The notes under the pieces are model-generated. The model saw nothing but the letters and a program-made list of their open reading frames with translations. It made no database searches and was not told the origin of the DNA. Positions 1-42,231 of a stretch of DNA of 64,000 nt are shown piece after piece. Positions within the stretch are counted from its first letter, which is position 1. Every line of letters begins with the position of its first letter. Where the stretch lies: positions 1 to 64,000 of the IMG/VR virus record IMGVR_UViG_3300046673_000306; one strand, written 5' to 3'. The stretch is from a virus. The position numbers and the translations under genes were made by a program.

Positions 1-2208
1 AGCCTCCTCGGTTTCAACGTGAGAGCCATCACGATCCTTGACGATGACGATCTTGTTCGGAATCCGATCCCCGAAATTCTCCAAGTGCGAGACCAGGAAC
101 ACCTGGTGGTCCTTCCCGATCTCCAAGATGGTGCTGGCGAAGGCGTCGACTCCGGACTGGTCCAAGTCGCTGACCTCGTCGATCATGACCAGGTCCACGC
201 GCTTGCCCGCTCTCCGGCTGATGACCTTGGCCAGGGCCATCCTTATGGCCAGGGCCACGCGCGCGGCCTCGCCTCCGCTGTACTGCCTGAAGTCCCGGGC
301 CCCGAGTTCGTCGCTGACGATGATGTCCAGGGTCTCCGCAGTCTTGCCCGTCTTCAGCTCCTTCTGCGTCGCGAACTCGACCTTGATCCTGCCCCCGGTC
401 AGCTTCTCCATGACGTCGTTGACCTCGGACTGGATTTCCCCCAGCGCGTTATCCAGGATCAGGGCCGGTATCCCGTTTCTTGAGAAGGCCCTGGTCAGCT
501 CCTTGTAGACGAACTGCTGGTCCACGGCCTCCTTGTGCCGCACCCGGTCGGCCTCCAGCTGCTTGCCCTTGCTCCGGCAGGCCTCGGCTCGGGCCTGGAG
601 CACCCCCAGTTCCTGACTGGCCTGGGCCCGGCGGTTGGCCAGCGCCGTCTCCTGGGCCCGAGCCGCGACGATCCTGGCCTCGGCCTGGGAGGCCTCGGCC
701 TCGGAGTAGGCGTGGCTGCCCAAGGACTTCTCCGCCACGATCTTGCGCCCGCCCCACTGCGTCCGCTCCGACGCGATCTCGTCCGCGCGCCTCTTGAAAG
801 ACTCCTCCACCTGCTGGCGCCGAGCCCCCGCCGACTGCACCTGGTTCTTCGCCATCTCGATCTGGCTGAGTTCGCGCTTGAAGTTGTCCAGGTCCCGGCG
901 CAGCTCCCCCTGCTGCGCCACGGAGTTGGCCAGGCCCCGGACCTCGGCTTCGACCTGGGCGCAGCGTTCGACCACGGATTTGGCCTGCGCGGCCTTGGCG
1001 TCGTAGTCCTTGCGCTTGGCCGTGCCCTCGGCCACGATGTCCTCCATGATCTTCTTCTGCGCGTCCTCGGTCAGCGCCGAGTAGCAGGTCGGGCACCGCG
1101 ACCCGATCTGGGTCACCTGCCCGAGCTTTGACCTCAGCCTCGCCAGGTCCTTGTCCATGACCTCGATCTCGCGCTGGTATCCATCGCGCTGGACCCTGAG
1201 CGTGGCCTGCTCGGTCTGCAACTGGTTCAGGCGCTTCTCCACCTGCTCGTAGGTCTTGATCTTGGCCTCGACCTCGGCGGCGGCCCTGGTCACCGTGGGC
1301 TCGCGCTGGACCATCTGGGACATGCGCTGGCACTCGGCGTCGACGCCAGCCAGCTGCTCGGTGCGGTCCCGCTCCGCGTACTCCTGCTGGCTGCGCAGCC
1401 GATCGAGGCTCTGATCGGCTTGGATCAGGTCAGACTGGAGCTTCTGGTGGAAGGCGGCCTTGGCCCGGACCTCCCCGGCAGCCCTCACCGCCTCCTCGAC
1501 AACGGAGTTGGCCGCGACGGACTTGTCCGCCAGGTCCGAGACCTCCTCCTCCAACCTAGCCAGGGCCTCGTCCCCCACGGTCTCCTGGCCTATCTCCAGC
1601 TGGATGCGGTCGATGGCCAGGCCCAGGGCCTGAGCGTCGCGCTCGTGGTCGGAGGCCAGGCGCCGGGCCCGCTCCTCGACGTCCGCGTAGCCGTCGATGC
1701 CGAGGATCGTGCTCAGGACCTCCTTGCGCTTGGACGGGAGTTGGCTCGGGAATAGGTCCAGCTTCTTCTGGGGGGAGTACACGGTATTGCTGAAGACCTC
1801 GTAGTCCATACCCAGGACCTCTACGATGCGGGCCTGCGTCTCCTTCACGGAGTTGCCCCGCAGCTTCTTGTCGTTAGTCAGGTCCGAGAACAGCAGGCTC
1901 TGGCTCTTGCCACGCTTGCGCGAGCGCACGACCTCGTACTTGACGCCGTCGATCTCGAAGACGTTGGTCACCTTCATCTCGTCGGTGCCGAGGCGGATCA
2001 GGTCGTCGTCGCTCGCGGCGCGGCTGACGCCGAACAGGGACCAGGCCACGGCCTCGATCAGTGTGCTCTTGCCCGCGCCGTTCGACTCCCCGGGGTCACC
2101 ACCCACGTACTTGCCCGTGATCAGGACCGGCCCGGAGTAGCGATCGAGGGCGAACTCCTGGTCCGCGTAGGCCATGAAGTTTTCGAGCTTGATCCTTAGT
2201 TCTCTCAT
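1..2208 (-). CDS. sbcC: SbcC/Rad50-like SMC ATPase (stop lies just outside the window)
   Basis: Manual translation: MRELRIKLENFMAY...SNGAGKSTLIEA (Walker A), long coiled coil, CPTC Zn hook, SGGE signature, VMIDE Walker B, VSH H-loop. ATGA overlap with the upstream ORF. Not in the ORF track. Confidence 0.92.
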   Translation of the reverse strand, partial: MRELRIKLENFMAYADQEFALDRYSGPVLITGKYVGGDPGESNGAGKSTLIEAVAWSLFGVSRAASDDDLIRLGTDEMKVTNVFEIDGVKYEVVRSRKRGKSQSLLFSDLTNDKKLRGNSVKETQARIVEVLGMDYEVFSNTVYSPQKKLDLFPSQLPSKRKEVLSTILGIDGYADVEERARRLASDHERDAQALGLAIDRIQLEIGQETVGDEALARLEEEVSDLADKSVAANSVVEEAVRAAGEVRAKAAFHQKLQSDLIQADQSLDRLRSQQEYAERDRTEQLAGVDAECQRMSQMVQREPTVTRAAAEVEAKIKTYEQVEKRLNQLQTEQATLRVQRDGYQREIEVMDKDLARLRSKLGQVTQIGSRCPTCYSALTEDAQKKIMEDIVAEGTAKRKDYDAKAAQAKSVVERCAQVEAEVRGLANSVAQQGELRRDLDNFKRELSQIEMAKNQVQSAGARRQQVEESFKRRADEIASERTQWGGRKIVAEKSLGSHAYSEAEASQAEARIVAARAQETALANRRAQASQELGVLQARAEACRSKGKQLEADRVRHKEAVDQQFVYKELTRAFSRNGIPALILDNALGEIQSEVNDVMEKLTGGRIKVEFATQKELKTGKTAETLDIIVSDELGARDFRQYSGGEAARVALAIRMALAKVISRRAGKRVDLVMIDEVSDLDQSGVDAFASTILEIGKDHQVFLVSHLENFGDRIPNKIVIVKDRDGSHVETEEA

Positions 2209-2579
2209 ATGTCAAACCTCGCCTGATGGGCGACGACTCCGAACTTGGCCTTGGCTCCGGCGTCGCAGACCCTGAGCAAGGATATCAGGCCGTGGATTCC
2301 GCTGATCAATCCCTCCCGCCAGTCGAAGTACTCGCTCTCGGTCTGGGCGATGCGGAACCGGTCCTCGGCCATGGGCCGCATCTTTTGGGAGGTCACGGGG
2401 TAGCCCTTGGCCCTGATCTCGGCGATGGCGCGCAGGATCGAGTCCTCGGACAGGCCCGTCTCCTTCTTGGCGTCGACCATGGCCATGTTCTCGCCGCTAC
2501 CCCGACCGCAGCTGGAGACCAGGCAGTCGTATACGACCTTGTCGAAGATCAGGCCCTCTGCGGGCTTGCTCTCGGCCAT
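2205..2579 (-). CDS. hypothetical protein (possible HTH)
   Basis: 124 aa ORF packed between E1 and sbcC. Confidence 0.65.
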   Translation of the reverse strand: MAESKPAEGLIFDKVVYDCLVSSCGRGSGENMAMVDAKKETGLSEDSILRAIAEIRAKGYPVTSQKMRPMAEDRFRIAQTESEYFDWREGLISGIHGLISLLRVCDAGAKAKFGVVAHQARFDI

Positions 2580-2580
2580 C

Positions 2581-3309
2581 TCAGACCTGGCTCCCGATCA
2601 GCTTGTGCTGGCGACAGTGGAAGGTCGTCTCGTTGCGGAACGGAACACCGTTAACGAAGGAGCTGACCGTGCTCGCGATGAAGGCGGCGGAGAAGAACGA
2701 GGAGTAGGAGACGGCTTGCGCGGTGCAGGGCAGGTGCTCACCCTCCTCGGAGCTATACAGGTTCTCCTCATAGAAGGCCTCGTGCATGGGGTCGTGAGGG
2801 TTCACCGCGTACATGCGCAGGACCTCTCCGCCCATGCGCACGTCTATGACCAGGCGGATCGCGGGGCAGGCTTTCGCCACCTCCCACAGGTGCTTGCGCG
2901 CATCCATATTATCCACGGCCATGACCAAGATCGTCTGATCGTCGAAAGTGGGGCGCGCATCCTTGTCCAGGTGCTGGACGATGCCCACGACCTGCTGGTC
3001 AGTCAAGTCCTGGACGATCCCGGCCAGAACCTCGACCTTGCGCTTACCCACGGCGTAGGACTGATAGACTTGACAGCTAACGTTATGCTCGTCGACGACG
3101 TCCCGGTCCCAGACCGTGATCTTCTGCGCGCCCATCTTCGCCAGGGCCAGGGCGGTCCACGACCCCACTGACCCCGCCCCCACCACGACGAAGCTCCACT
3201 CGTTGAGCTTCTCCGGGCTCATGAGGTCGAGCTGGCGCCAGTACTTCTGGTTCTTCTCCGGCGGCTTCGGGGCCTCGACGGCGTTCACGTCTGCGGTTAT
3301 GGTTTCCAC
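2581..3309 (-). CDS. E1-like ThiF/MoeB-family Ubl-activating enzyme
   Basis: GAGSVG, DRDVVDEHNVSCQ, GKRKVE, AVDN, DVRMG and candidate catalytic Cys in LPC; GTG start after GAGGAGG. Confidence 0.9.
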   Translation of the reverse strand: METITADVNAVEAPKPPEKNQKYWRQLDLMSPEKLNEWSFVVVGAGSVGSWTALALAKMGAQKITVWDRDVVDEHNVSCQVYQSYAVGKRKVEVLAGIVQDLTDQQVVGIVQHLDKDARPTFDDQTILVMAVDNMDARKHLWEVAKACPAIRLVIDVRMGGEVLRMYAVNPHDPMHEAFYEENLYSSEEGEHLPCTAQAVSYSSFFSAAFIASTVSSFVNGVPFRNETTFHCRQHKLIGSQV

Positions 3310-3311
3310 GG

Positions 3312-4067
3312 TTATCTCCTCCTCACGGTCTTGAGCGGCTTGAACTTCATTATCCGCCCCATCTCCTCGCGGTAGGCCTCGGCCTGCCCGGGGTTGAACA
3401 CGGGCGCGACCTTGAGCGGGAGGTTGTCGATCCCGTAGCGCACGGGGTCGTAGAAGTCGACGCGGCACCGGCTCTCCAGGCGCTGATTCACGACGATGGA
3501 CATCGTGAACCTGGAATTGTGCAGGGCCTCGACCGTGTCCATGTCCGTGGTGCTGAAGAACACGGGCATGGTGTGGTGGCTGTGCCAGAACAGGTCGTAG
3601 CCCTCGGTGTCGAGGCCGTGCTTGCGCATCTGCCGCATGAACTGGTTCAGCGTCTCCTCGAATATGCGGCTGGACGCAGCCGTGTTCACCTGCTCCAGGG
3701 CCACGACGTCCTGGACCAGGAAGGAGTTGCCGGTCCGCACGACCTTGCCGAAGCCGCTGACCTCTCCCGGCGCCTGCATCGTGTAGCACATCATCTTATT
3801 GTAAGCGGCCTGATCGATCACGATCTCGAAGGCACGCTTCATCAGCAGTATCTGCTGGAGGGACGAGAAGTTCTCTATGGGCAGGAACCGAGCGTCCTTG
3901 GGCACCGCCGGTGGCCACAGGCAGCCGATCCTAACCGGCTGATACGTGGCCCCGGTGATATTCAGAGCCGACAGCGAGAGGCTGCTCGGCACGATCTCTG
4001 GCGTCAGCTCCGAGCCCTGCGTCTGCGTCAGGGTCCCGGTCAGGACCCCCTCCGTGGTCTGGATCAT
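3312..4067 (-). CDS. JAB/MPN+ metallo-isopeptidase
   Basis: GEVSG ... WHSHHTMPVFFSTTD matches E...HxH-x7-S-x2-D. Confidence 0.9.
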   Translation of the reverse strand: MIQTTEGVLTGTLTQTQGSELTPEIVPSSLSLSALNITGATYQPVRIGCLWPPAVPKDARFLPIENFSSLQQILLMKRAFEIVIDQAAYNKMMCYTMQAPGEVSGFGKVVRTGNSFLVQDVVALEQVNTAASSRIFEETLNQFMRQMRKHGLDTEGYDLFWHSHHTMPVFFSTTDMDTVEALHNSRFTMSIVVNQRLESRCRVDFYDPVRYGIDNLPLKVAPVFNPGQAEAYREEMGRIMKFKPLKTVRRR

Positions 4068-5701
4068 CCTACCTCCTCGATTTCGCTCACGTTCGCGGTG
4101 AATGCTTGGTGCTTCTTAACCGTCTCGGCTAAGGTCTCCTCCGACGCCGTCTTCGCTTCTGGACCATCGTGCAAGGCTTCTCGGGGTACGCCCAGAGCCT
4201 TGTGCACCTCGCTCTTGACGTCCTCCATTTTCTGCAAGAACTGGCCCGGAGTAGCGGGACCCGCATGGATTACTTCGACATCATAGCGAATAGGCATCAC
4301 ACCCGGAGCCACCGGGGTTGCCTGCTCTCCCGGGGTAAAGGCCTGGAGCACGGCTGGGGTCCGCACGCAGTCCTCGATCTTGTTGTGTCGGCTATCGACG
4401 TTATAGCAGTGCAGCCACTCGTGCATGATCTGGAAGACCATGGCGTAGCGCTCCATACCGATCAGCTTCGGGATGTCACTGCCCATATTACCAAGGCAAG
4501 GGTGCTCGGAGCCGGTGCTCAGGTGCGGGTGGGAGGCCCCGGTCTTGGTCTCGTGCCGGAGTTCGATGGCGCCGTTCTGGCGGATGCAGACCAGGAACTT
4601 GCCCAGCGCGTACTTCTTGCCCTCGTGCTCGATCGTCACGGGCGCGCTCATGCCGATGATCCGACCGTGCCTGATCTTGAACTTCTCGTAGAGGCCATCA
4701 TCCACGAGCTTGAGCAGCATCCGAACTTCCTTGGACAGCTCCGCGTCCAGGGCCCCGGAGCCGAGGAGAGTGATCTCCTTCTGGCTCTCGCGCACGGCCC
4801 GCGACTTCTCGATCAGGCTCTTCTCCAGGGACCTGATCTCACTCATGGCGGAGTCGATCTTGTCTTGCAGGGACTTCTGGCGCTTGCGCATGGAGTCGCC
4901 GCAGAACTCGCGGAATAAGGAATCCGTTACCTCTCCCCTGATCTCCCTGGCGTAGCCCCCGACTATGCGCTGGTACTGGGACAGCACGTGCTCGATCAGG
5001 GGCGCGATCCGCTCCGGCGCCGAAGCTACCTGGTGTCGGTCCCTCATCACCATCCCGCTGGGCAGTTTCTCGTCGGGCAGAGCCTTCTCTGCCTCGGGGA
5101 TGTAGAGCATGGTATAGACGTACTTCCCCTCGATCCTTCCGATGAATGTCTTGCGGTCGTCGTAGATGTTGGCGTAGGCCGGGAACTCCGGGGAGCACAA
5201 CTTCTCCGGGGCCTTCCGCGATTGCAGCTCGTCGAGCCCCACCCTCCACGCGCCCTCGTTCGGGTTAACCGAGGACTTCTCCAGGGCCTTGGGATCGCCG
5301 CTGAGGAAGAGGACCAGGGTGTTGGGCCCGACCCGCATGTCCACCAGCGGCCTCTCGTAGAACTCGTAGGGGGCCATGCCCCCGGTGAGCACGACCCGCA
5401 GGTCCTTGCCGAGCCTGTCCGCCCACGCCGAAAAGAGTGGGCGAAGCCCGTCGAGGCCATCCCCGACGAGCTTCACCCTGCGGCCCTTGGGGCTGCGGCA
5501 TACGGATACTCGGAACTCTCCGCGCTTCGGTTCGGGCCTGCTCTCGGGTGCCTTCTCGCACTTCATGTCCGAGGACTCATCGTAGGACACGGTCGTCCGA
5601 GAGGCACCGCTGCCCCAGGCCACGTAGTTGGTTCCTGCTGATGTCGTCCCGCCCGCGATTACTCCCGTCCCGTAGTCTGGAGAGTTCGAGTACCCGCTCA
5701 T
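4064..5701 (-). CDS. coiled-coil protein with C-terminal E2-like (UBC) domain
   Basis: HPHLSTGSEHPCLG resembles the E2 HPN...C active site; flanked by Ubl and JAB. Confidence 0.7.
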   Translation of the reverse strand: MSGYSNSPDYGTGVIAGGTTSAGTNYVAWGSGASRTTVSYDESSDMKCEKAPESRPEPKRGEFRVSVCRSPKGRRVKLVGDGLDGLRPLFSAWADRLGKDLRVVLTGGMAPYEFYERPLVDMRVGPNTLVLFLSGDPKALEKSSVNPNEGAWRVGLDELQSRKAPEKLCSPEFPAYANIYDDRKTFIGRIEGKYVYTMLYIPEAEKALPDEKLPSGMVMRDRHQVASAPERIAPLIEHVLSQYQRIVGGYAREIRGEVTDSLFREFCGDSMRKRQKSLQDKIDSAMSEIRSLEKSLIEKSRAVRESQKEITLLGSGALDAELSKEVRMLLKLVDDGLYEKFKIRHGRIIGMSAPVTIEHEGKKYALGKFLVCIRQNGAIELRHETKTGASHPHLSTGSEHPCLGNMGSDIPKLIGMERYAMVFQIMHEWLHCYNVDSRHNKIEDCVRTPAVLQAFTPGEQATPVAPGVMPIRYDVEVIHAGPATPGQFLQKMEDVKSEVHKALGVPREALHDGPEAKTASEETLAETVKKHQAFTANVSEIEEVG

Positions 5702-5705
5702 ACCC

Positions 5706-5990
5706 CTACTCCCGGCCCGCCTGGACCTTGGGAAGCCGGTACAACGTCGGCTCGCTGCCGGTGATGACGCTGGTCCAGCCGCAGACCTTGCCGTTGAGGC
5801 GCCAGCCCTCGTCCTTCGCGGTCTTGTCCTCGGGCACGCTCTGGCCCGCCAGCTTCAGGGCCTCGGCCACGGTCGTCACGCCCTCGACGACCTCGATCTC
5901 CTTGGTCTTGTCCCGGAACTCGCCGACGTCGAGCTTGACCTTCTTCACTCCGACCTTCAGCTTCTTCTTCTTTCCCACCGGTGGTGTCAC
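5706..5990 (-). CDS. ubiquitin-like beta-grasp protein
   Basis: TTVAEALKLAG, WRLNG, C-terminus PKVQAG-RE; GGAGG RBS. Confidence 0.8.
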   Translation of the reverse strand: MTPPVGKKKKLKVGVKKVKLDVGEFRDKTKEIEVVEGVTTVAEALKLAGQSVPEDKTAKDEGWRLNGKVCGWTSVITGSEPTLYRLPKVQAGRE

Positions 5991-6054
5991 CTTGCCCTCC
6001 TGTTCCTGCGATTTGACCGGGGATAGCGAGCCCCCGGCCTCGCCGCCTTAGCGG

Positions 6055-6936
6055 CTACTTCCTGTTACCTTCCAGATAGACGCGGATCAGGGTCAGGACC
6101 CTAGGCCAGTCCTCGTCGTCGACCATGGACTGAATCTCTCCCCGCTGATCCCCGAAGCAGACATTGCATAGCCCGGACGCGTTCTCGTTGTGGGGGACGT
6201 CAGATGCCACCTGCCCCGGGCCCACGTTCTCGATCACTATCCTCGTGGGCGACAACTCGGGGAAGACCTTGATCGCGTACTCGCCCCGCCGCGTGACCCC
6301 GAGCTTGGCCTCGACATCCATCGGGCCTGTGTAGGCGACGAGGACGCGGCGCTCGCCCTCCTGGACCATCTCGACGTTGGCGAAGAGCCTGGACTTGACT
6401 AGGGCCAGGAGCTTACCGGCCAGGGCCGCAGGCCAGACCTCGCCGCCGACCTTGGACGCCTCCAGCCGGACCAGGTTCTCGTTGCGCATCTTCATGATGT
6501 TGTGGGCGCGCTGGATCGCGGCCTCGTACTCGGCGACCTCGGACTTGGCCTTGGCGATCCTACCGTCGATCTGGGTGGAGAACGACTGCCAGCGGGAGTG
6601 GGCGAAGTCCTCGATCATCTTCTGCTGGGCCGCGATATCGACCTTGACCCGCACCCGCTCCCGGCGCCTGATTTCGGGCCGGAACCACTCCGCCAGTCGC
6701 CTCCTCCCGTCCTTGAACACGAGGACGTCGCCGTCGATCGTCGCGACCTCGTGCTCGGACCCGGGAACCAGGCCTATGCTCGTGGACGCCTGCCCCGCGA
6801 CGACGACGTCTCCTCGCAAGAGCTTGGCCGCGAAATCCTTGGGGTCCTTGACCTTGACCACGCGCGTGCGGTACGTCGGGATCGGCAGGACCGCGTCCTT
6901 CACCTTCTCCACCGCATCCATGATCTTGCGCATCAC
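6055..6936 (-). CDS. second coiled-coil plus E2-like protein
   Basis: Same layout as 4064..5701; VPHNENASGLCNVCFG motif. Confidence 0.55.
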   Translation of the reverse strand: MMRKIMDAVEKVKDAVLPIPTYRTRVVKVKDPKDFAAKLLRGDVVVAGQASTSIGLVPGSEHEVATIDGDVLVFKDGRRRLAEWFRPEIRRRERVRVKVDIAAQQKMIEDFAHSRWQSFSTQIDGRIAKAKSEVAEYEAAIQRAHNIMKMRNENLVRLEASKVGGEVWPAALAGKLLALVKSRLFANVEMVQEGERRVLVAYTGPMDVEAKLGVTRRGEYAIKVFPELSPTRIVIENVGPGQVASDVPHNENASGLCNVCFGDQRGEIQSMVDDEDWPRVLTLIRVYLEGNRK

Positions 6937-7250
6937 CCTTGCACCACCCGAGGGACCGAGTGGCAGCTGAGGGTCATGATGCAGTAGCCCTTGGGCAGGC
7001 CGAACCTCGGGCCCTCCAGGAGGTAGTCGATCCTGCTCATCAGCTCCCGGCCCGTGTACTCCAGGTCGACGGCAGCCTTCTTATCGGTGTGGGGCACGTC
7101 CTTGACCACGGACCTAACCTCACGCTCGTGCAGGAAGTGGCCGACCCCGTAACCGCGATCGTTCCTCCGGAACTCCCATGGCTTCAGGCCGTTGACCCTG
7201 GCCTGGAACACGTCCTCGTGCGTCTTGATCTGGTGAGTCATCTGCTCCAC
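6933..7250 (-). CDS. ASCH/DUF3850-family protein
   Basis: HQIK...GLKPWEFRRNDRGYGVG...YTGR...GYCIMTL. Confidence 0.85.
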   Translation of the reverse strand: MEQMTHQIKTHEDVFQARVNGLKPWEFRRNDRGYGVGHFLHEREVRSVVKDVPHTDKKAAVDLEYTGRELMSRIDYLLEGPRFGLPKGYCIMTLSCHSVPRVVQG

Positions 7251-7251
7251 G

Positions 7252-8457
7252 TTATTCGCCTCCTGATATGAGTTTCTTCCCCGCCACCACCACCTGCTCC
7301 TTCACCGCCGACGAGTAATCTTGGGTCCCAACCCACTTCTCCAGGGCTGCCACCGGGCTCAGGGCCTCGGTGATCTCGGGGGCGCGCTGGAGCTTGGCCT
7401 CGCACATGTCGAAGCTGACGGTGCGCACACGCTCGGCGCCGAGCTTGACCAGAAGGTCTCCCAGGCGCCGGTCGTCCACCCCCACCTTCTGACCGGAACC
7501 GCACTTGATCGTGACCTTGACGATCGCACCCTTCAGATCGTAGTCCTCCATCTTCCCCTCAAGCCACCCCTGGAGGTTGGAGACGGACTCCGGGGCCCCG
7601 AAGAACTTGCTGCCCTCCGCCTGGTTGGGGCTGAGGTCGGCGACGATGTGGAGGAAGCGCCGGGCCGGGGTCGGGATAAACTCGACCTTGATCTCGGGTC
7701 CGTAGACCTCGTAGTAGATGAAGCCCTTCGGGTCATCAGCCTCACCGAAGTCGACTCGGTCTATGCTCCCGCAGTACCCGATCCAGGGCTTGTCGTGCAT
7801 CCGCTGAGCTTTATGGACATCGCCAAGCAGGACCGCGAGCAGCCGGGGGTCGACCAAGTCCCCCAGGGGGATATTCTGGTCGTCACCCACTACATATTCA
7901 TTGGTCCCGACCTTGGCCTCCTTGACGAGAAAGTGGGAGACCAGGATCATGCGGCTGCCTGCGGGGCAGCGCGAGATCAAGTCATTCATCACCTGCTTGA
8001 AGTAGGTCCTGTAGTTCAGCCCCGAGCGCTGGAGCAGCGCCTTCCCGATGTGGGGGATCAGCAGGCGATAGGCGATGGTCTGGTCGCCGCACATGACCGG
8101 CCTCACTGTGGGCTCCTCGATCACGTCCATGGCATTGCCGAGGTTGCGCATGTCCACGAAGGCGTGCACCGAGCCCCCGGCCTCGCTCTCGCGGATATCG
8201 TGGTTGGCGACGATGATCTCCGACTCGATCCCGTGCCGCCTCAGGAGCCGGACGCGGTGCATTATGTCCGTCTCGATCGGGAGGGGGTGGGACGACCTGT
8301 AGCCGTCACCACCGTGCGTGAAGCAGAAGGGGACCTTGGGGCCCAGGGCGTCGGCGCGCCGGATCGTCTCGGCGATGACGAAGTCCACGCACTTGGCCGT
8401 GTCCTCAAGGTTGCGCGTGGCGTCGATGTGCCAATCGCTGCTGAAGCAGCCAGCCAA
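7252..8457 (-). CDS. sbcD: SbcD/Mre11-like metallophosphoesterase nuclease
   Basis: SDWHI, GGD, ANHD, VSH, LGDVH, YCGSIDRVDFGE motifs. Confidence 0.92.
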   Translation of the reverse strand: MAGCFSSDWHIDATRNLEDTAKCVDFVIAETIRRADALGPKVPFCFTHGGDGYRSSHPLPIETDIMHRVRLLRRHGIESEIIVANHDIRESEAGGSVHAFVDMRNLGNAMDVIEEPTVRPVMCGDQTIAYRLLIPHIGKALLQRSGLNYRTYFKQVMNDLISRCPAGSRMILVSHFLVKEAKVGTNEYVVGDDQNIPLGDLVDPRLLAVLLGDVHKAQRMHDKPWIGYCGSIDRVDFGEADDPKGFIYYEVYGPEIKVEFIPTPARRFLHIVADLSPNQAEGSKFFGAPESVSNLQGWLEGKMEDYDLKGAIVKVTIKCGSGQKVGVDDRRLGDLLVKLGAERVRTVSFDMCEAKLQRAPEITEALSPVAALEKWVGTQDYSSAVKEQVVVAGKKLISGGE

Positions 8458-8468
8458 ATCAGGTTTAA

Positions 8469-8573
8469 TCAGAACGCCTCCTTGAACTTGCGCTCGATGC
8501 AGTCCGAGGCCTCGATCGGATCGTAGGTCTTCTCGAAGATGTCGGCCACCGGCTTCTTCCGGAACCTACCCAT
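8469..8573 (-). pseudogene. 34-aa remnant of a common phage protein (both termini only)
   Basis: MGRFRKKPVADIFEKTYDPIEASDCIERKFKEAF; GGGAGA RBS. Confidence 0.5.
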
Positions 8574-9087
8574 GAGATTCTCCCTTATCCGCTTGCGGCA
8601 TCGGCGCCTGGGCCGCAGGCTTCCGATCTTGCTTCAGGAACTCCCTGGCGATGAATGCCGTGGCGTTGCCGCTGTTAAGTATCCTCTGCAAGGTGTCCCG
8701 CATCGACTCCATGGTTTCGAGACCCAGCTCCGGCTTCTCCGCAGCGATCCAGCGCATCCTCGCGACGGAGTCCACCCCCACGATCTTGGTCATGATCTCG
8801 CAGAGGCGGATCACGAAGTCGCCGTCGCTGTTCTGGTGGAGCTTGCGGACGTGGCAGGCGTAGCACAGGGTCGCGCCGTTGCAGACGTTGTAGGCCAGGG
8901 GCTGGCAGTGGCCCTTGGCGAACAGCCAGTGGTGGGCCTGGAGGTTCTCGGTCTTGGGGCACATCAGGCACTTGTTGCCGTCGCGCAGCCTCACGACCCT
9001 GGACCACAGCTCGCTCAGAGCCTTCTTCACGCGCTTGAGGCGCACGGCCTTAGTCGGAGGTCTCTTGGCCTTCTTGTTTTTGCTCAT
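8566..9087 (-). CDS. NinG/Rap-like HNH-fold endonuclease
   Basis: LWSRVVRLRD..CLMC..AHH..NGATLCYACH. Confidence 0.75.
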   Translation of the reverse strand: MSKNKKAKRPPTKAVRLKRVKKALSELWSRVVRLRDGNKCLMCPKTENLQAHHWLFAKGHCQPLAYNVCNGATLCYACHVRKLHQNSDGDFVIRLCEIMTKIVGVDSVARMRWIAAEKPELGLETMESMRDTLQRILNSGNATAFIAREFLKQDRKPAAQAPMPQADKGESHG

Positions 9088-9188
9088 AAAAAAAAGGTGG
9101 GACGCCCGTTGCACCTGATTCGAGAGAGAACCCTCGACCAGACGGGCGACCCATAAAGTAAAAAAGGTTCTCTGTTCATCAGGTGCAC
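9088..9188 (-). ncRNA. structured 5' leader (A-B-A'-B' pseudoknot type)
   Basis: GCACCTGAT/ATCAGGTGC and AGAGAACC/GGTTCTCT crossing GGGTCGCCCGT/ACGGGCGTCCC, then U8-ATG. Confidence 0.6.
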
Positions 9189-9192
9189 TATC

Positions 9193-9225
9193 ATCATAGC
9201 AAACCCACGGAATTTGTCAAGACCC
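9193..9225 (-). promoter_or_regulatory. sigma70-type promoter
   Basis: GGGTC-TTGACA-16-TATGAT with extended TG. Confidence 0.7.
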
Positions 9226-24624: not shown

Positions 24625-24747
24625 TTGACAAGAAAGCATCCTCCTGTTATACTAATCATGCTACCGGATGAAGTGAGCATTTTCATTCTTAGGTCCTCGT
24701 GCGGAAACGCTCACGGTGCTTCCGGTAGCCACGAGGGCCTTCTTTTT
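24625..24747 (+). promoter_or_regulatory. promoter plus pseudoknot-type leader of tnpB1
   Basis: TTGACA-17-TATACT; GCTACCGGA/TCCGGTAGC crossing AGGTCCTCGTG/CACGAGGGCCT. Confidence 0.7.
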
Positions 24748-25890
24748 ATGTTGAAGACTTATTCGTTCAGGCTCTACCCGAACCACGCGCAGACTAAGAA
24801 TCTGGCGCAGCACTTCGGCGCGGCCCGCTGGATTTACAACCAATCCCTTGAGCGAAAGATCAAAGTCTACCAGGAGACGAAGAAGAGCCTGTCCTGGGTC
24901 GACCTCGCCAAGGAGATCACAGGTCTCAAGAAGGCCGCTGGTACGATGTGGCTCCAGGATGTTGCTCTCGCCCCGCTCCAGTCCTCTGTTCGGCACCTCG
25001 ACTCCTCCTTCAAGAGATTTTTCCAGGAGAAGAGAGGCTTCCCGGCGTTCAAGCGGAGGCGCGGCAGGCAGTCGTTCCAGTATCCCACCGGAGTCAAGGT
25101 GGATTTCCCGAAACACCTGCTCTACCTCCCCCGCATCGGATGGATTCGTTTTAGAGACCCAAGAGTGTTCTATGGCAAGATCGGCACCGTTACCGTCGTC
25201 AAGTCGTCTACCGGGAAGCACTACGCCCAGGTCCTGGTCGAGTTGCCTGGGGAAGTCATTGAGAAGAAGCCGCTGGAGCAGTCCAGGGCCGTTGGCGTCG
25301 ACGTTGGACTGACAACTTTCGCGACCTTCTCCGACGGGCGCAAGATAGCGAACCCGCGCTTCTTGAAGACCGCCCTGACGAAACTGCGCCGCGCGAACCG
25401 GCGTCTGAGCCGCAAGCAGAAGGGCTCCAATAACAGGAGCAAGTCGCGGTTGAAACTCGCGCATGTTCACGAGAAGATCGCGAACCGCAGAAAAGACTTC
25501 TTGCACAAGTTGACGAGCCAGATGACGAACGAGAACCAAGTCGACACCTGGGTAGTCGAGACGTTGAACGTGAAGGGCATGGGGAAGATGCGCAGCCTGT
25601 CTCGCGCCATCCACGATGCGGCCTGGTCGGAGTTTGTGCGCCAGCTCGCATACAAGAGCGAGTGGCGCGGTAAGAACCTGGTGAAGATCGGTCGCTTCAT
25701 GCCGTCGTCTAAGATGTGTTCCTGCGGAGCGATCAATGATAGTCTGCGCCTCGCCGACAGGACGTGGACGTGCGCCATGTGCGGCGCCACCCACGATAGA
25801 GACGTGCTGGCCGCGCAGAACATTCTGCGGTTCGGCTTTGATACCGAGGGTAACCCGGGAATTAACGCTTCTGGACAGGCGGTGCCTTAA
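24748..25890 (+). CDS. tnpB: TnpB RNA-guided nuclease (alternative in-frame start 24658)
   Basis: HTH YSFRLYPN, RuvC GVDVG / VETL / DRD, Zn ribbon CSCG..CAMC. Confidence 0.95.
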   Translation: MLKTYSFRLYPNHAQTKNLAQHFGAARWIYNQSLERKIKVYQETKKSLSWVDLAKEITGLKKAAGTMWLQDVALAPLQSSVRHLDSSFKRFFQEKRGFPAFKRRRGRQSFQYPTGVKVDFPKHLLYLPRIGWIRFRDPRVFYGKIGTVTVVKSSTGKHYAQVLVELPGEVIEKKPLEQSRAVGVDVGLTTFATFSDGRKIANPRFLKTALTKLRRANRRLSRKQKGSNNRSKSRLKLAHVHEKIANRRKDFLHKLTSQMTNENQVDTWVVETLNVKGMGKMRSLSRAIHDAAWSEFVRQLAYKSEWRGKNLVKIGRFMPSSKMCSCGAINDSLRLADRTWTCAMCGATHDRDVLAAQNILRFGFDTEGNPGINASGQAVP

Positions 25891-40933: not shown

Positions 40934-41043
40934 TTTACAACGGAAAATAATATGCTATACTATAAATGCTCCCGGTGGATTTTCTATTTACGGGTCGTCC
41001 GTGCCGACGGGAAACCATCGGGAGCCACGGACGACCCACTTTT
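40934..41043 (+). promoter_or_regulatory. promoter plus pseudoknot-type leader of tnpB2
   Basis: TTTACA-16-TATACT; GCTCCCGGTGG/CCATCGGGAGC crossing GGGTCGTCCGTG/CACGGACGACCC. Confidence 0.7.
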
Positions 41044-42231
41044 ATGATTCTTAAAACTTTCCAGCTAAGGCTCTACCCAAATCGTCGGCAGACGCGCTTG
41101 CTATCCAAACATTTCGGCTGTGCCCGCTTCGTCTACAACTGGGGGCTGGCAAAGAAACGGGACGAATATGAGAAAACTGGGAAGTCCTCCACATGGGTCG
41201 CTCTCTGCAAAGAACTAACCATATTGAAGCAGGGCACCTATTGGCTGTGTGAGGTAGCCACTGCTCCATTACAATCTTCTATCCGGCATCTCGACGCGGC
41301 TTACCAGAAGTTTTTCAAGGAGAAGAAAGGATATCCGGCGTTCAAGCGCAAACACGGACGTCAGGCATTTCAGTATCCGGAGAACGTTAAGGTTAACGCC
41401 GAAAAGCGTCAGTTGTATTTCCCATGCATCGGATGGGTACGCTACCTCGATGGGCGCAGTATGGACGGGCAGATTAAAACCGTGACCGTAGTGCGTAGCG
41501 CGACGGGTAAGCACTACGCGCAGGTCCTGGTTTTACTACCTGATAATATCCCTGAGAAGAAGCCTCTCGATAAGTCGCGTGCGGTTGGCATTGATGTCGG
41601 CCTGACGACATTCGCTACATTCTCTGACGGGCGCAAGGTCGCTAACCCGCGTTTCCTAAAATGGAGTCTTAAAAAGCTGGCGACGGCAAACAGGCATCTG
41701 AGTCGGACGCGGAAAGGTTCAGAGAACCGTGGCAAGGCGCGGTTACATTTGGCATTGGCTCACGAGAAGGTCGCTAACCGCAGAAAAGATTTCCTGCATA
41801 AACTGACGACACAGATGGTAAACGAAAACCAAGTTGACACCTGGGTCATCGAGACGTTGAACGTAGCCGGTATGGTCAAACTGCGGAGCCTATCGAGAAG
41901 CATTCATGATGCCAGCTGGTCGGAGTTTGTACGTCAGCTAGTGTATAAATGTGACTGGCGTGGTAAGAACTTGATAAAGATTGGTAGGTTCATGCCGTCG
42001 TCTAAGATGTGCTCTTGCGGTGCAGTAAATGATGACTTGCGTTTGGCTGACCGGACGTGGACGTGCAGGATGTGCGGGGTTACGCATGACAGGGATATCC
42101 TAGCGGCCCAGAACATTCTGAAGTTTTCTAATCTAAATACCGAGGGCAACCCGGGAATTAACGCCTCTGGAGAGGAAGGTCGTAAACTTCCCCGTGGAAA
42201 GAGGAAATCCATACGTGTTCGGAAGGGATAG
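41044..42231 (+). CDS. tnpB: TnpB RNA-guided nuclease (alternative in-frame start 40966)
   Basis: GIDVG / IETL / DRD; close paralog of TnpB1. Confidence 0.95.
   Translation: MILKTFQLRLYPNRRQTRLLSKHFGCARFVYNWGLAKKRDEYEKTGKSSTWVALCKELTILKQGTYWLCEVATAPLQSSIRHLDAAYQKFFKEKKGYPAFKRKHGRQAFQYPENVKVNAEKRQLYFPCIGWVRYLDGRSMDGQIKTVTVVRSATGKHYAQVLVLLPDNIPEKKPLDKSRAVGIDVGLTTFATFSDGRKVANPRFLKWSLKKLATANRHLSRTRKGSENRGKARLHLALAHEKVANRRKDFLHKLTTQMVNENQVDTWVIETLNVAGMVKLRSLSRSIHDASWSEFVRQLVYKCDWRGKNLIKIGRFMPSSKMCSCGAVNDDLRLADRTWTCRMCGVTHDRDILAAQNILKFSNLNTEGNPGINASGEEGRKLPRGKRKSIRVRKG

Follow-up and report, generated by a model that had tools for sequence, protein, structure and literature searches.

Here we describe a five-gene cassette for predicted ubiquitin-like protein (Ubl) conjugation in a 64,000-nucleotide stretch of DNA from a large uncultured phage (the window), which comprises positions 1-64,000 of the 106.5-kb linear IMG/VR virus record IMGVR_UViG_3300046673_000306 (completeness estimate 64%). 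On its minus strand, and in transcription order, the cassette encodes an E2-like protein (E2a), a Ubl, a second E2-like protein (E2b), a JAB peptidase, and a minimal E1. The coordinates of these genes (Table 1) confirm the places, strand, and order given for them in the original prediction, a short reading made from the letters of this DNA. The same prediction assigned the cassette to a phage, which agrees with the source being an IMG/VR virus record and with the phage hallmarks that it contains, including a primase-helicase, helicases, and a tail fibre. Gene content, folds, catalytic motifs, conservation, and the recurrent linkage of Ubl, E2, JAB, and E1 genes are observed here. We consider it probable, although well short of certain, that the cassette forms a real phage-encoded Ubl-conjugation pathway in which coiled-coil E2s choose their targets via variable N-terminal domains.

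E2b has a UBC-like domain and E2a is its divergent paralogue

E2b consists of a disordered N terminus, a clade-specific α/β domain (residues ~61-230), helices that include a coiled coil (229-334), a UBC-like domain (316-449), and a variable C-terminal tail. Its AlphaFold2 model has an overall predicted local distance difference test (pLDDT) score of 62.8, with values of 79-88 over most of residues 321-380. In this model a 55-residue helix (260-314) leads into a second helix (317-334) and six strands, after which come a loop with an HPH sequence and Cys402 and further helices. With VIA, residues 316-449 align to the entire UBC domains of the E2s Ube2K, Ubc13, UbcH5, and UbcH10 and of UFC1 with Z scores of 7.0-7.9 and root-mean-square deviations (rmsd) of 3.3-3.7 over 114-122 residues, and the top 50 matches for the domain are all E2, UEV, or RWD-type folds. 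When 48,161 chains were searched without relying on Foldseek, E2s once more ranked first, the remainder being single-helix matches to E2b residues 259-315. Approximately 20 close homologues of E2b were found, and in 19 of them His391-Pro-His393 and Cys402 are invariant, as is Gly404, giving the pattern HPH-x8-C-L-G.

E2a is built from a small N-terminal domain (~1-95), a coiled coil (~109-165), and a divergent UBC-like domain (~174-289). An hhalign comparison of the E2a family (12 sequences) with the E2b family gave an E value of 7e-6 and a probability of 84%, with Cys260 of E2a placed on Cys402 of E2b and the alignment spanning the end of the coiled coil and the whole UBC-like domain. A local hidden Markov model (HMM) of 165 other E2 domains with the HPH motif (HPH-E2 domains) detected residues 174-289 of E2a with an E value of 6.8e-10 and E2b with an E value of 8e-43. 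In the 12 E2a homologues Pro248, Asn250, and Cys260-Phe-Gly are invariant, and V-P-[HYFV]-N replaces HPH. By these sequence relationships, E2a is a divergent paralogue of E2b that has kept a cysteine at the catalytic position. The E2-like character proposed earlier for both proteins is thus upheld, by a UBC-like fold and catalytic motif in E2b and by homology to E2b in E2a. Coiled coils had been proposed for both as well, and a crude heptad scan places them only at E2a 109-165 and E2b 267-316, directly N-terminal of the UBC-like domains and, in E2b, consistent with the 55-residue helix of the model.

Neither E2a nor E2b has a Pfam match at E ≤ 1, and thus none to UQ_con or to Prok-E2_A to E. 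Searches of PHROGs, NCBIfam, and PADLOC returned nothing useful for either protein, and phmmer searches of both against PDB sequences returned coiled-coil noise only.

The likely start codon of E2a is the ATG at 6933, which overlaps the stop codon of the upstream DUF3850 gene (TGATG). In two relatives, the closest one (L003, 2314-3528, plus strand, 95% identity) and P0021, DUF3850 and E2a occupy one continuous frame, which encodes 399 amino acids in P0021. This arrangement could be either a frameshift in one record or a true fusion, which would hint that DUF3850 works with E2a. The DUF3850 gene is missing from L001 and L005-L008, which are more distantly related.

The Ubl, JAB peptidase, and E1

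The Ubl precursor has a Lys-rich N-terminal tail, a β-grasp core (~17-90), and a C terminus that reads KVQAG-RE, with Gly92 followed by the residues RE. Alignment shows a Lys-rich N terminus throughout the Ubls of the window clade. Gly92 is invariant in 13 homologues, in which it is preceded by Ala or Asn and followed by one to four unconserved residues (RE, R, SKK, AK, LVG, ADQE). An invariant Gly with one to four variable residues after it is what one sees in precursors that have to be trimmed. The Gly masked by two residues that the original prediction had pointed out is a conserved feature of a protein modelled as a β-grasp. In the Bil system, BilC was shown to trim BilA to its C-terminal Gly (PMC10557695).

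The AlphaFold2 model of the Ubl has a pLDDT of 74.8. The top 50 Foldseek matches to this model are all β-grasp proteins, nearly all of them Ubls or ThiS/MoaD-type carriers (SUMO, MoaD, ubiquitin, NEDD8), with probabilities of 0.92-1.0. In VIA-align, SAMP1 matches the model with a Z score of 7.9 over 69 residues (rmsd 2.6); the score is 7.3 for both MoaD and NEDD8, and 6.7 for the Ubl found in a bacterial E1-E2-Ubl complex (8tyz_B). No family model in Pfam, PHROGs, NCBIfam, or PADLOC matched the Ubl, its profile had no significant match in the PDB (RUB1, E value 0.16), and the ESM Atlas returned a weak Rad60-SLD match (0.84) that serves as a lead only.

The JAB protein matches Prok-JAB with an E value of 3.5e-4 and 20.9 bits, which is under the 25-bit Pfam cut-off, and the PADLOC JAB model with an E value of 8e-4. 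A profile of its orthologues reaches Rpn11 in the PDB (E value 8e-4). The JAMM motif is intact, as expected from the original assignment, with Glu102, His162-Ser-His164, Ser172, and Asp175 invariant in six orthologues. The presumed role of the enzyme is to trim the Ubl tail and to deconjugate the Ubl.

The E1 matches the Pfam ThiF model with an E value of 4e-22 and 79 bits (cut-off 28.1) and the NCBIfam ThiF model with an E value of 8.7e-18. Among PADLOC models its best match is E1-E2 (Cap2), at 7e-16, while the BilD match (1.7e-7) covers only ~100 Rossmann residues. A profile of the E1 finds TcdA, UBA5, Uba1, MoeB, Cap2, and ThiF in the PDB with E values of 1e-7 to 1e-4. As judged by these comparisons, the protein is a ThiF-family adenylation domain, in line with the earlier assignment, without clear membership in ThiF, MoeB, Cap2, BilD, UBA5, or Uba1. 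A longer open reading frame of 402 amino acids was rejected as the E1 gene, and a GTG start at 3309, preceded by GAGGAGGAG, was taken as the true one. This start gives a protein of 242 amino acids, and an orthologue has Met at the same place.

Five E1 orthologues share the sequence Gly43-Ala-Gly45-x-x-Gly48, an N-terminal W-R-Q-L-D, V-D-x-M-x-A-R, Cys147, and Cys194. Cys194 sits in a P-C-T motif, C-terminal of the crossover region. In ThiF, UBA5, and ATG7 the reactive cysteine of the single-domain E1 lies at the corresponding location, and by this analogy we infer that Cys194 is a candidate reactive cysteine. The alignment of orthologues shows neither a CxxC zinc site nor a rhodanese domain. 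Where N-x-x-R-Q is usual, the E1 of the distant phage locus L013 has HNLPNQ.

The HPH-E2 family and its linkage to JAB and E1 genes

The UBC-like domain of E2b belongs to a large family. Scoring 1.84 billion representatives with the E2b-family profile gave at least 1020 clusters, defined at 50% identity, for which E ≤ 1e-3, and 260 with E ≤ 1e-10. Nearly all of the matches are confined to profile positions ~270-446, corresponding to the coiled coil and UBC domain, in proteins of 110-743 amino acids. The motif is preceded by 47-681 residues and usually lies ~60 residues from the C terminus. In 100 distant members the HPH, the Cys, and the Gly are invariant, and the active-site loop reads HPH[VI]xxxGxPC[LWF]G. 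The canonical E2 loop is HPN[IV]xxxGx[IV]CL.

The only recurrent relevant Pfam match among the 100 distant members is UQ_con, found in two of them (best E value 2.9e-5), and no Prok-E2 model matches at E ≤ 0.01. A profile of 100 family members searched against the PDB was swamped by coiled-coil matches and returned no E2, and for the E2 domain the ESM Atlas returned unnamed, mostly viral clusters, which are leads only. The HPH-E2 family is not covered by Pfam or PHROGs. Neither a nucleotide search nor tblastn searches with E2b and with a domain-only family member found a match among the deposited phages of INPHARED. A literature search, which left subscription journals outside its scope, found no paper on this E2 family or on a phage E1/E2/JAB/Ubl cassette. 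In one subgroup of the family (P0054, P0056, P0091, and others) the motif is doubled to HPHPH, and the C terminus continues into a long Cys-rich extension in which CxxC-like pairs are numerous. From its sequence, this extension could be a fused module of the zinc-binding or RING-like type.

Gene order around the cassette is conserved. In the window clade (63-65% GC) every locus with enough DNA has the order SbcD, (DUF3850), E2a, Ubl, E2b, JAB, E1, a conserved 124-amino-acid protein (p124), and SbcC, and the persistence of this order in seven related loci, to ~45% identity, is far beyond chance. L013, from a far more distant phage (47% GC), has SbcD, a Ubl that ends KGG-R, one 602-amino-acid E2, JAB, E1, and SbcC. 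Other IMG/VR loci have a Ubl that ends KG-N or KG-A, followed by E2, JAB, and E1, with no SbcCD match nearby.

We also searched species-representative bacterial genomes and IMG/VR with a stringent DNA pattern that encodes the active-site loop, for which we estimated ~0.3 chance matches in the bacterial set. The pattern found 46 bacterial loci, many from Myxococcota, including megabase contigs, and others from phyla of the Candidate Phyla Radiation, Planctomycetota, and Gammaproteobacteria metagenome-assembled genomes (MAGs). In IMG/VR it found 15 stretches, on contigs of up to 232 kb, and all of the new loci were confirmed as true domain matches. Across phages of 33-63% GC the cassette occupies varied genomic contexts. 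In the bacterial loci, ThiS-like genes lie upstream and end in PKVEGG followed by one or two residues. The presence of the cassette family on bacterial-binned contigs, some of them megabase-sized, means that it is not exclusive to phages.

For a tally of linkage, made with a JAB profile that is narrow, we took 48 further loci, from phages and bacterial MAGs, for which 2.5 kb or more of downstream sequence was available. JAB and E1 genes lie directly downstream on the same strand in 30 of the 48, E1 alone in 11, JAB alone in three, and neither in four. Two of these last four loci are extra E2 copies on contigs that have the cassette elsewhere. A Ubl gene with a GG tail is often found upstream in the 44 loci that have one or both downstream genes.

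Several loci have more than one HPH-type E2, grouped around one JAB and one E1. There are three in L014/L069 (L014: 3712-4332, 6509-7288, and 7260-8498), two in L038, and two in L072, whose contig holds one more copy in L071. As judged from these gene sets, the use of one E1 by several E2s appears to recur independently in other loci.

Several Myxococcota MAG chromosomes (L022, L029, L031, L044, L051, and others) have multiple pairs of HPH-E2 and JAB genes, with three pairs on one 5.98-Mb chromosome. Within the 8 kb examined around these pairs no E1 was found by profile, and the pairs could form a subtype that either has no E1 or relies on a shared one in trans. A search of IMG/VR with SbcD for relatives that lack the cassette returned only one contig, which was already included. 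Flavobacterium phage FpV4 (L009, KT876724.1 59031-69462) was considered as a cultured example and rejected, as the genes next to its JAB-like and ThiF gene pair bear no relation to E2a or E2b, and the stretch has no HPH-E2 domain. In cultured Flavobacterium psychrophilum phages, a weak JAB-like protein is encoded directly upstream of a ThiF-like gene annotated as 'thiamine biosynthesis protein'.

Proposed pathway and the role of E2a

We can propose a sequence of chemical steps for the cassette, together with roles for the coiled coils and N-terminal domains and a choice of targets. The JAMM peptidase would remove the two residues after Gly92 of the 94-residue β-grasp protein. The 242-residue E1, probably a homodimer like MoeB/ThiF, would adenylate Gly92 and could carry the Ubl on Cys194 in thioester linkage. 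The Ubl would then pass to Cys402 in the UBC domain of E2b, and possibly to Cys260 of E2a. The coiled coil that precedes the UBC domain could dimerise each E2 or pair E2a with E2b, and the lineage-variable N-terminal domain would pick the target, creating an 'E2 with its own adaptor', so that no separate E3 would be needed. The lysines of phage or host proteins would be the final acceptors of the Ubl, those of its own Lys-rich N-terminal tail perhaps included, and the JAB enzyme could reverse the modification.

The original prediction had raised the possibilities that the pathway acts on host or phage proteins or offsets a Ubl defence of the host, and that its coiled coils pair the E2s or bring in substrates. 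As to its purpose, we suggest only tentatively that the system tags host proteins, such as those of defence or DNA-end processing, or the phage's own proteins during infection, with one set of E1, JAB, and Ubl serving one to three HPH E2s whose swappable N termini act as E3-like selectors. Such a system would be a viral counterpart of the eukaryotic hierarchy of one E1 and many E2s, and a mirror image of Bil defence.

Several observations weigh against the proposed pathway. The Z scores of 7-8 for E2b are middling by the tool's own scale and the active-site loop is modelled with a pLDDT of 51-62; because of this, the assignment of a UBC fold to E2b rests on the model, the motif, and the gene context together. 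The E1 clade lacks the Arg of the usual N-x-x-R-Q motif, and has HN-x-x-[CV]-Q instead, and its E1 has no catalytic cysteine domain of the BilD kind. Within the window nothing indicates a target. E2a has lost both His residues of HPH, and in the most divergent member of the clade (L008, 1898-2221) it is reduced to an N-terminal protein of 107 amino acids, without a coiled coil or UBC domain, while Ubl and E2b are kept. The truncation means that a second UBC domain is not obligatory and, with the loss of the His residues, that two working E2s are not assured.

These last features raise the alternative that only E2b is a working E2, with E2a serving a regulatory or non-catalytic function like that of a UEV/Mms2-type cofactor or an adaptor, as a coiled-coil partner that adds an N-terminal, and sometimes a DUF3850, domain. 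In addition to the altered motif and short form of E2a, this alternative would explain the far poorer score of E2a than E2b against the family HMM, the single E2 in L013 and many other loci, and the DUF3850-E2a frame of L003 and P0021. Nonetheless, we regard it as somewhat unlikely. Cys260 stands at the catalytic position in its C-F-G sequence, and it is invariant along with Pro248 and Asn250 in all 12 E2a homologues. Canonical HPN E2s also carry an Asn next to the Pro, and other loci hold two or three full HPH-type E2s.

Relation to known systems

The cassette is of the same kind as the Bil, type II CBASS, and Bub systems but is a member of none of the three. Bil, which is class 6d of Iyer et al. 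2006 (PMC1779556), is similar in having four separate genes, and the order Ubl-E2-JAB-E1 found here is that of bilABCD (PMC11601596). In Bil, as predicted from the genes here, the JAB exposes the C-terminal Gly of the Ubl and the E2 acts through a cysteine, and E2 dimerisation has been proposed for target choice (PMC10557695, PMC11601596). In contrast to Bil, the E1 of the cassette is one 242-residue adenylation domain, of which the BilD model covers the Rossmann part only. The classical-motif His is absent from class 6d E2s (PMC1779556), whereas HPH is invariant here, and the cassette further differs in the coiled coil and variable N-terminal domains of its E2s, in having two E2s, and in its phage owner. 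In PADLOC the Ubl, E2a, E2b, and JAB have no match to BilA, BilB, or BilC at E ≤ 1, although the presence of models for all three in the release was not confirmed. Because the E1 architecture and E2 motif differ, and with no BilA, BilB, or BilC match, we do not class the cassette as Bil.

Type II CBASS resembles the cassette in that the E1 matches Cap2-type models best (7e-16) and the JAB matches Cap3-type models (8e-4), and both systems are cysteine-based, as predicted for the cassette. However, Cap2 is an E2-E1 fusion that is encoded beside a CD-NTase and an effector, conjugates the CD-NTase, and has no free Ubl, while here E1 and E2 are separate and there is a dedicated Ubl. No nucleotidyltransferase is present among the flanking genes that were scanned (SbcC, SbcD, DUF3850, and unknowns). 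With no fusion and with a free Ubl, the cassette is not type II CBASS.

Bub (class 6E/DUF6527) shares the compact set of Ubl, E1, and E2, with a homodimeric E1 that is a single adenylation domain with a crossover-loop catalytic residue, and a non-canonical E2 (PMC11601596). Bub uses oxyesters on an E1 Tyr and an E2 Ser, and a DUF6527 serine protease; in contrast, the cassette has invariant cysteines and a JAMM enzyme, and a Pfam scan of it gave no DUF6527 match. Its cysteines and JAMM protease therefore set it apart from Bub.

Eukaryotic UBC E2s (UQ_con) superimpose over the whole domain and have an active-site loop close to that of the HPH-E2s, but the Asn of HPN is His here, and the UBC domain lies C-terminal to a coiled coil and a variable domain. 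SAMP/UbaA, ThiS/ThiF, and MoaD/MoeB have a comparable minimal single-domain E1 and a small ThiS/MoaD-like β-grasp protein, with SAMP1 the best solved match of the Ubl. They have no E2, whereas E2-like genes are integral to the cassette. The only phage entry in Iyer et al. 2006 is the TAPI/TAPK pair of Ubl and JAB (class 5; PMC1779556), in which a phage Ubl with a C-terminal Gly similarly stands beside a JAB peptidase. That JAB/NlpC pair lacks E1 and E2 and belongs to a tail module, in contrast to the E1 and E2s in a replication and recombination module found here.

The likeness to Bil bears on a second alternative, in which the chemistry is the same but the purpose is not takeover of the host. 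Instead, the cassette would be defence or exclusion cargo that tags the structural proteins of rivals, as Bil does, or protects a lysogen or infected cell. Both characterised relatives, Bil and type II CBASS, act against phages (PMC11601596). The gene order is identical to that of Bil, and the same cassette family is found on bacterial-binned contigs, including megabase Myxococcota contigs, and in varied phage contexts. We nevertheless think this purpose unlikely, as the cassette lies inside a replication and recombination block, tightly coupled to sbcD and sbcC, a position that is kept even in L013. The absence of PADLOC matches to BilA, BilB, and BilC described above also counts against it, and short MAG contigs, which could be mis-binned phages, account for many of the 'bacterial' ones.

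The same position suggests that the cassette might act on or with the flanking SbcCD, by tagging SbcCD, by being recruited by SbcCD to DNA ends, or by tagging host end-processing enzymes, with the Lys-rich tail and coiled coils contacting DNA or Rad50. The cassette is found between sbcD and sbcC in every clade member and in L013, the genes are translationally coupled, and the clade Ubls have basic N-terminal tails. However, no SbcC or SbcD profile match was found in L014-L017, in the 46 bacterial loci, or in 14 further viral loci, in a search that used narrow profiles and the DNA that had been fetched. The loci that share the junction represent one broad phage lineage (SbcC HMM E value 2e-124), in which common descent or an insertion hot spot would account for it just as well, and we find a functional tie to SbcCD quite unlikely.

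The proposal that no protein is tagged, with the Ubl serving as a ThiS/MoaD-type sulfur carrier or an acyl-adenylate carrier for small-molecule or nucleic-acid modification and the UBC-like proteins otherwise employed, could draw on the ThiF/MoeB models being the best for the E1, on MoaD and the dual-role SAMP1 among the close folds of the Ubl, and on sets of JAB, E1, and Ubl without E2 that serve sulfur metabolism (Iyer et al. 2006, PMC1779556), but it is highly improbable given two conserved UBC-fold proteins with invariant cysteines in the operon, the family-wide linkage of E2, JAB, and E1, an E1 with neither a CxxC zinc site nor a rhodanese domain, and neighbours among which, as the original prediction had noted for sulfur-transfer genes, scans with Pfam and PHROGs matched no rhodanese, cysteine desulfurase, ThiG/MoaE-type, or other sulfur gene.

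Among prokaryotic operons with E1, E2, JAB, and Ubl genes, those that have been characterised (Bil and type II CBASS) are used by bacteria against phages, and Bub is presumed, from where it lies in genomes, to act likewise. Here, similar machinery belongs to the replication and recombination block of a lytic-type large phage. If the cassette does conjugate its Ubl to proteins, it would be a new branch of Ubl signalling, with an active-site loop nearer to that of eukaryotic HPN E2s than the loops of Bil and Bub E2s are. It would also offer a tractable minimal system, consisting of a 242-residue E1, a Ubl core of ~75 residues, and E2s with built-in adaptors. Conjugation would further provide a direct means of asking which host or rival proteins phages tag, and the N-terminal domains of the E2s could then be read as a specificity code.

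Operon organization and flanking genes

The cassette is part of a run of nine minus-strand genes arranged head to tail (Table 1), with gaps or overlaps of 0-4 nt and a sole exception of 64 nt 5' of the Ubl gene. It is probably co-transcribed with the SbcD and SbcC recombination genes. The SbcD flank is kept in L001, L003, L005-L008, and L013, and the SbcC flank is also kept in related loci. SbcC is ~22% identical to Herelleviridae proteins. The p124 gene occupies the same position in L001, L003, L004, and L007, and L013 has no separate p124 gene. From its sequence, p124 is a candidate winged-helix or helix-turn-helix (HTH) protein that may be an accessory or regulator, and its membership in the cassette is uncertain.

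Table 1 Genes of the cassette and its flanks in the window.
Feature	Coordinates	Strand	Basis and remarks
SbcD/Mre11-like nuclease	7252-8457	-	phrog_100 SbcD-like, E 5e-8; upstream flank of cassette
DUF3850 (ASCH/PUA-like)	6933-7250	-	PF12961, E 2e-17; phrog_986 'RNA-binding protein'; directly upstream of E2a
E2a	6055-6936	-	Divergent UBC-like; family alignment and HMM
Ubl precursor, 94 amino acids	5706-5990	-	β-grasp model
E2b, 545 amino acids	4064-5701	-	UBC-like model and motif
JAMM/JAB metallopeptidase, 251 amino acids	3312-4067	-	Prok-JAB and intact motif
Minimal E1, 242 amino acids	2581-3309	-	Pfam ThiF
Conserved 124-amino-acid protein (p124)	2205-2579	-	Weak HTH_11 match, E 0.011; between E1 and SbcC
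SbcC/Rad50-like ATPase	1-2208, cut by contig end	-	AAA_23 6e-17, SMC_N 1.7e-11, Rad50_zn_hook 0.0026; downstream flank

The 64-nt gap before the Ubl gene (5991-6054, minus strand) is the only sizeable intergenic gap in the operon. It contains two short GC-rich hairpin-forming repeats, followed by a strong ribosome-binding site, AGGAGGG, 4 nt 5' of the GTG start codon of the Ubl. This gap could tune expression of the Ubl relative to the enzymes. The best match in the region to a sigma-70-like promoter is at 9193-9220 (minus strand), where TTGACA is separated by 16 nt from TG-n-TATGAT. This candidate promoter lies upstream of a gene for a 182-amino-acid protein (8566-9114) and may start a transcript that runs through sbcD and the cassette. 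A second cassette was not found in the 106.5 kb of the record. The phage genome also contains two TnpB-type genes, at 24625-25890 and 40966-42231 (phrog_506 'transposase', E ~1e-117).

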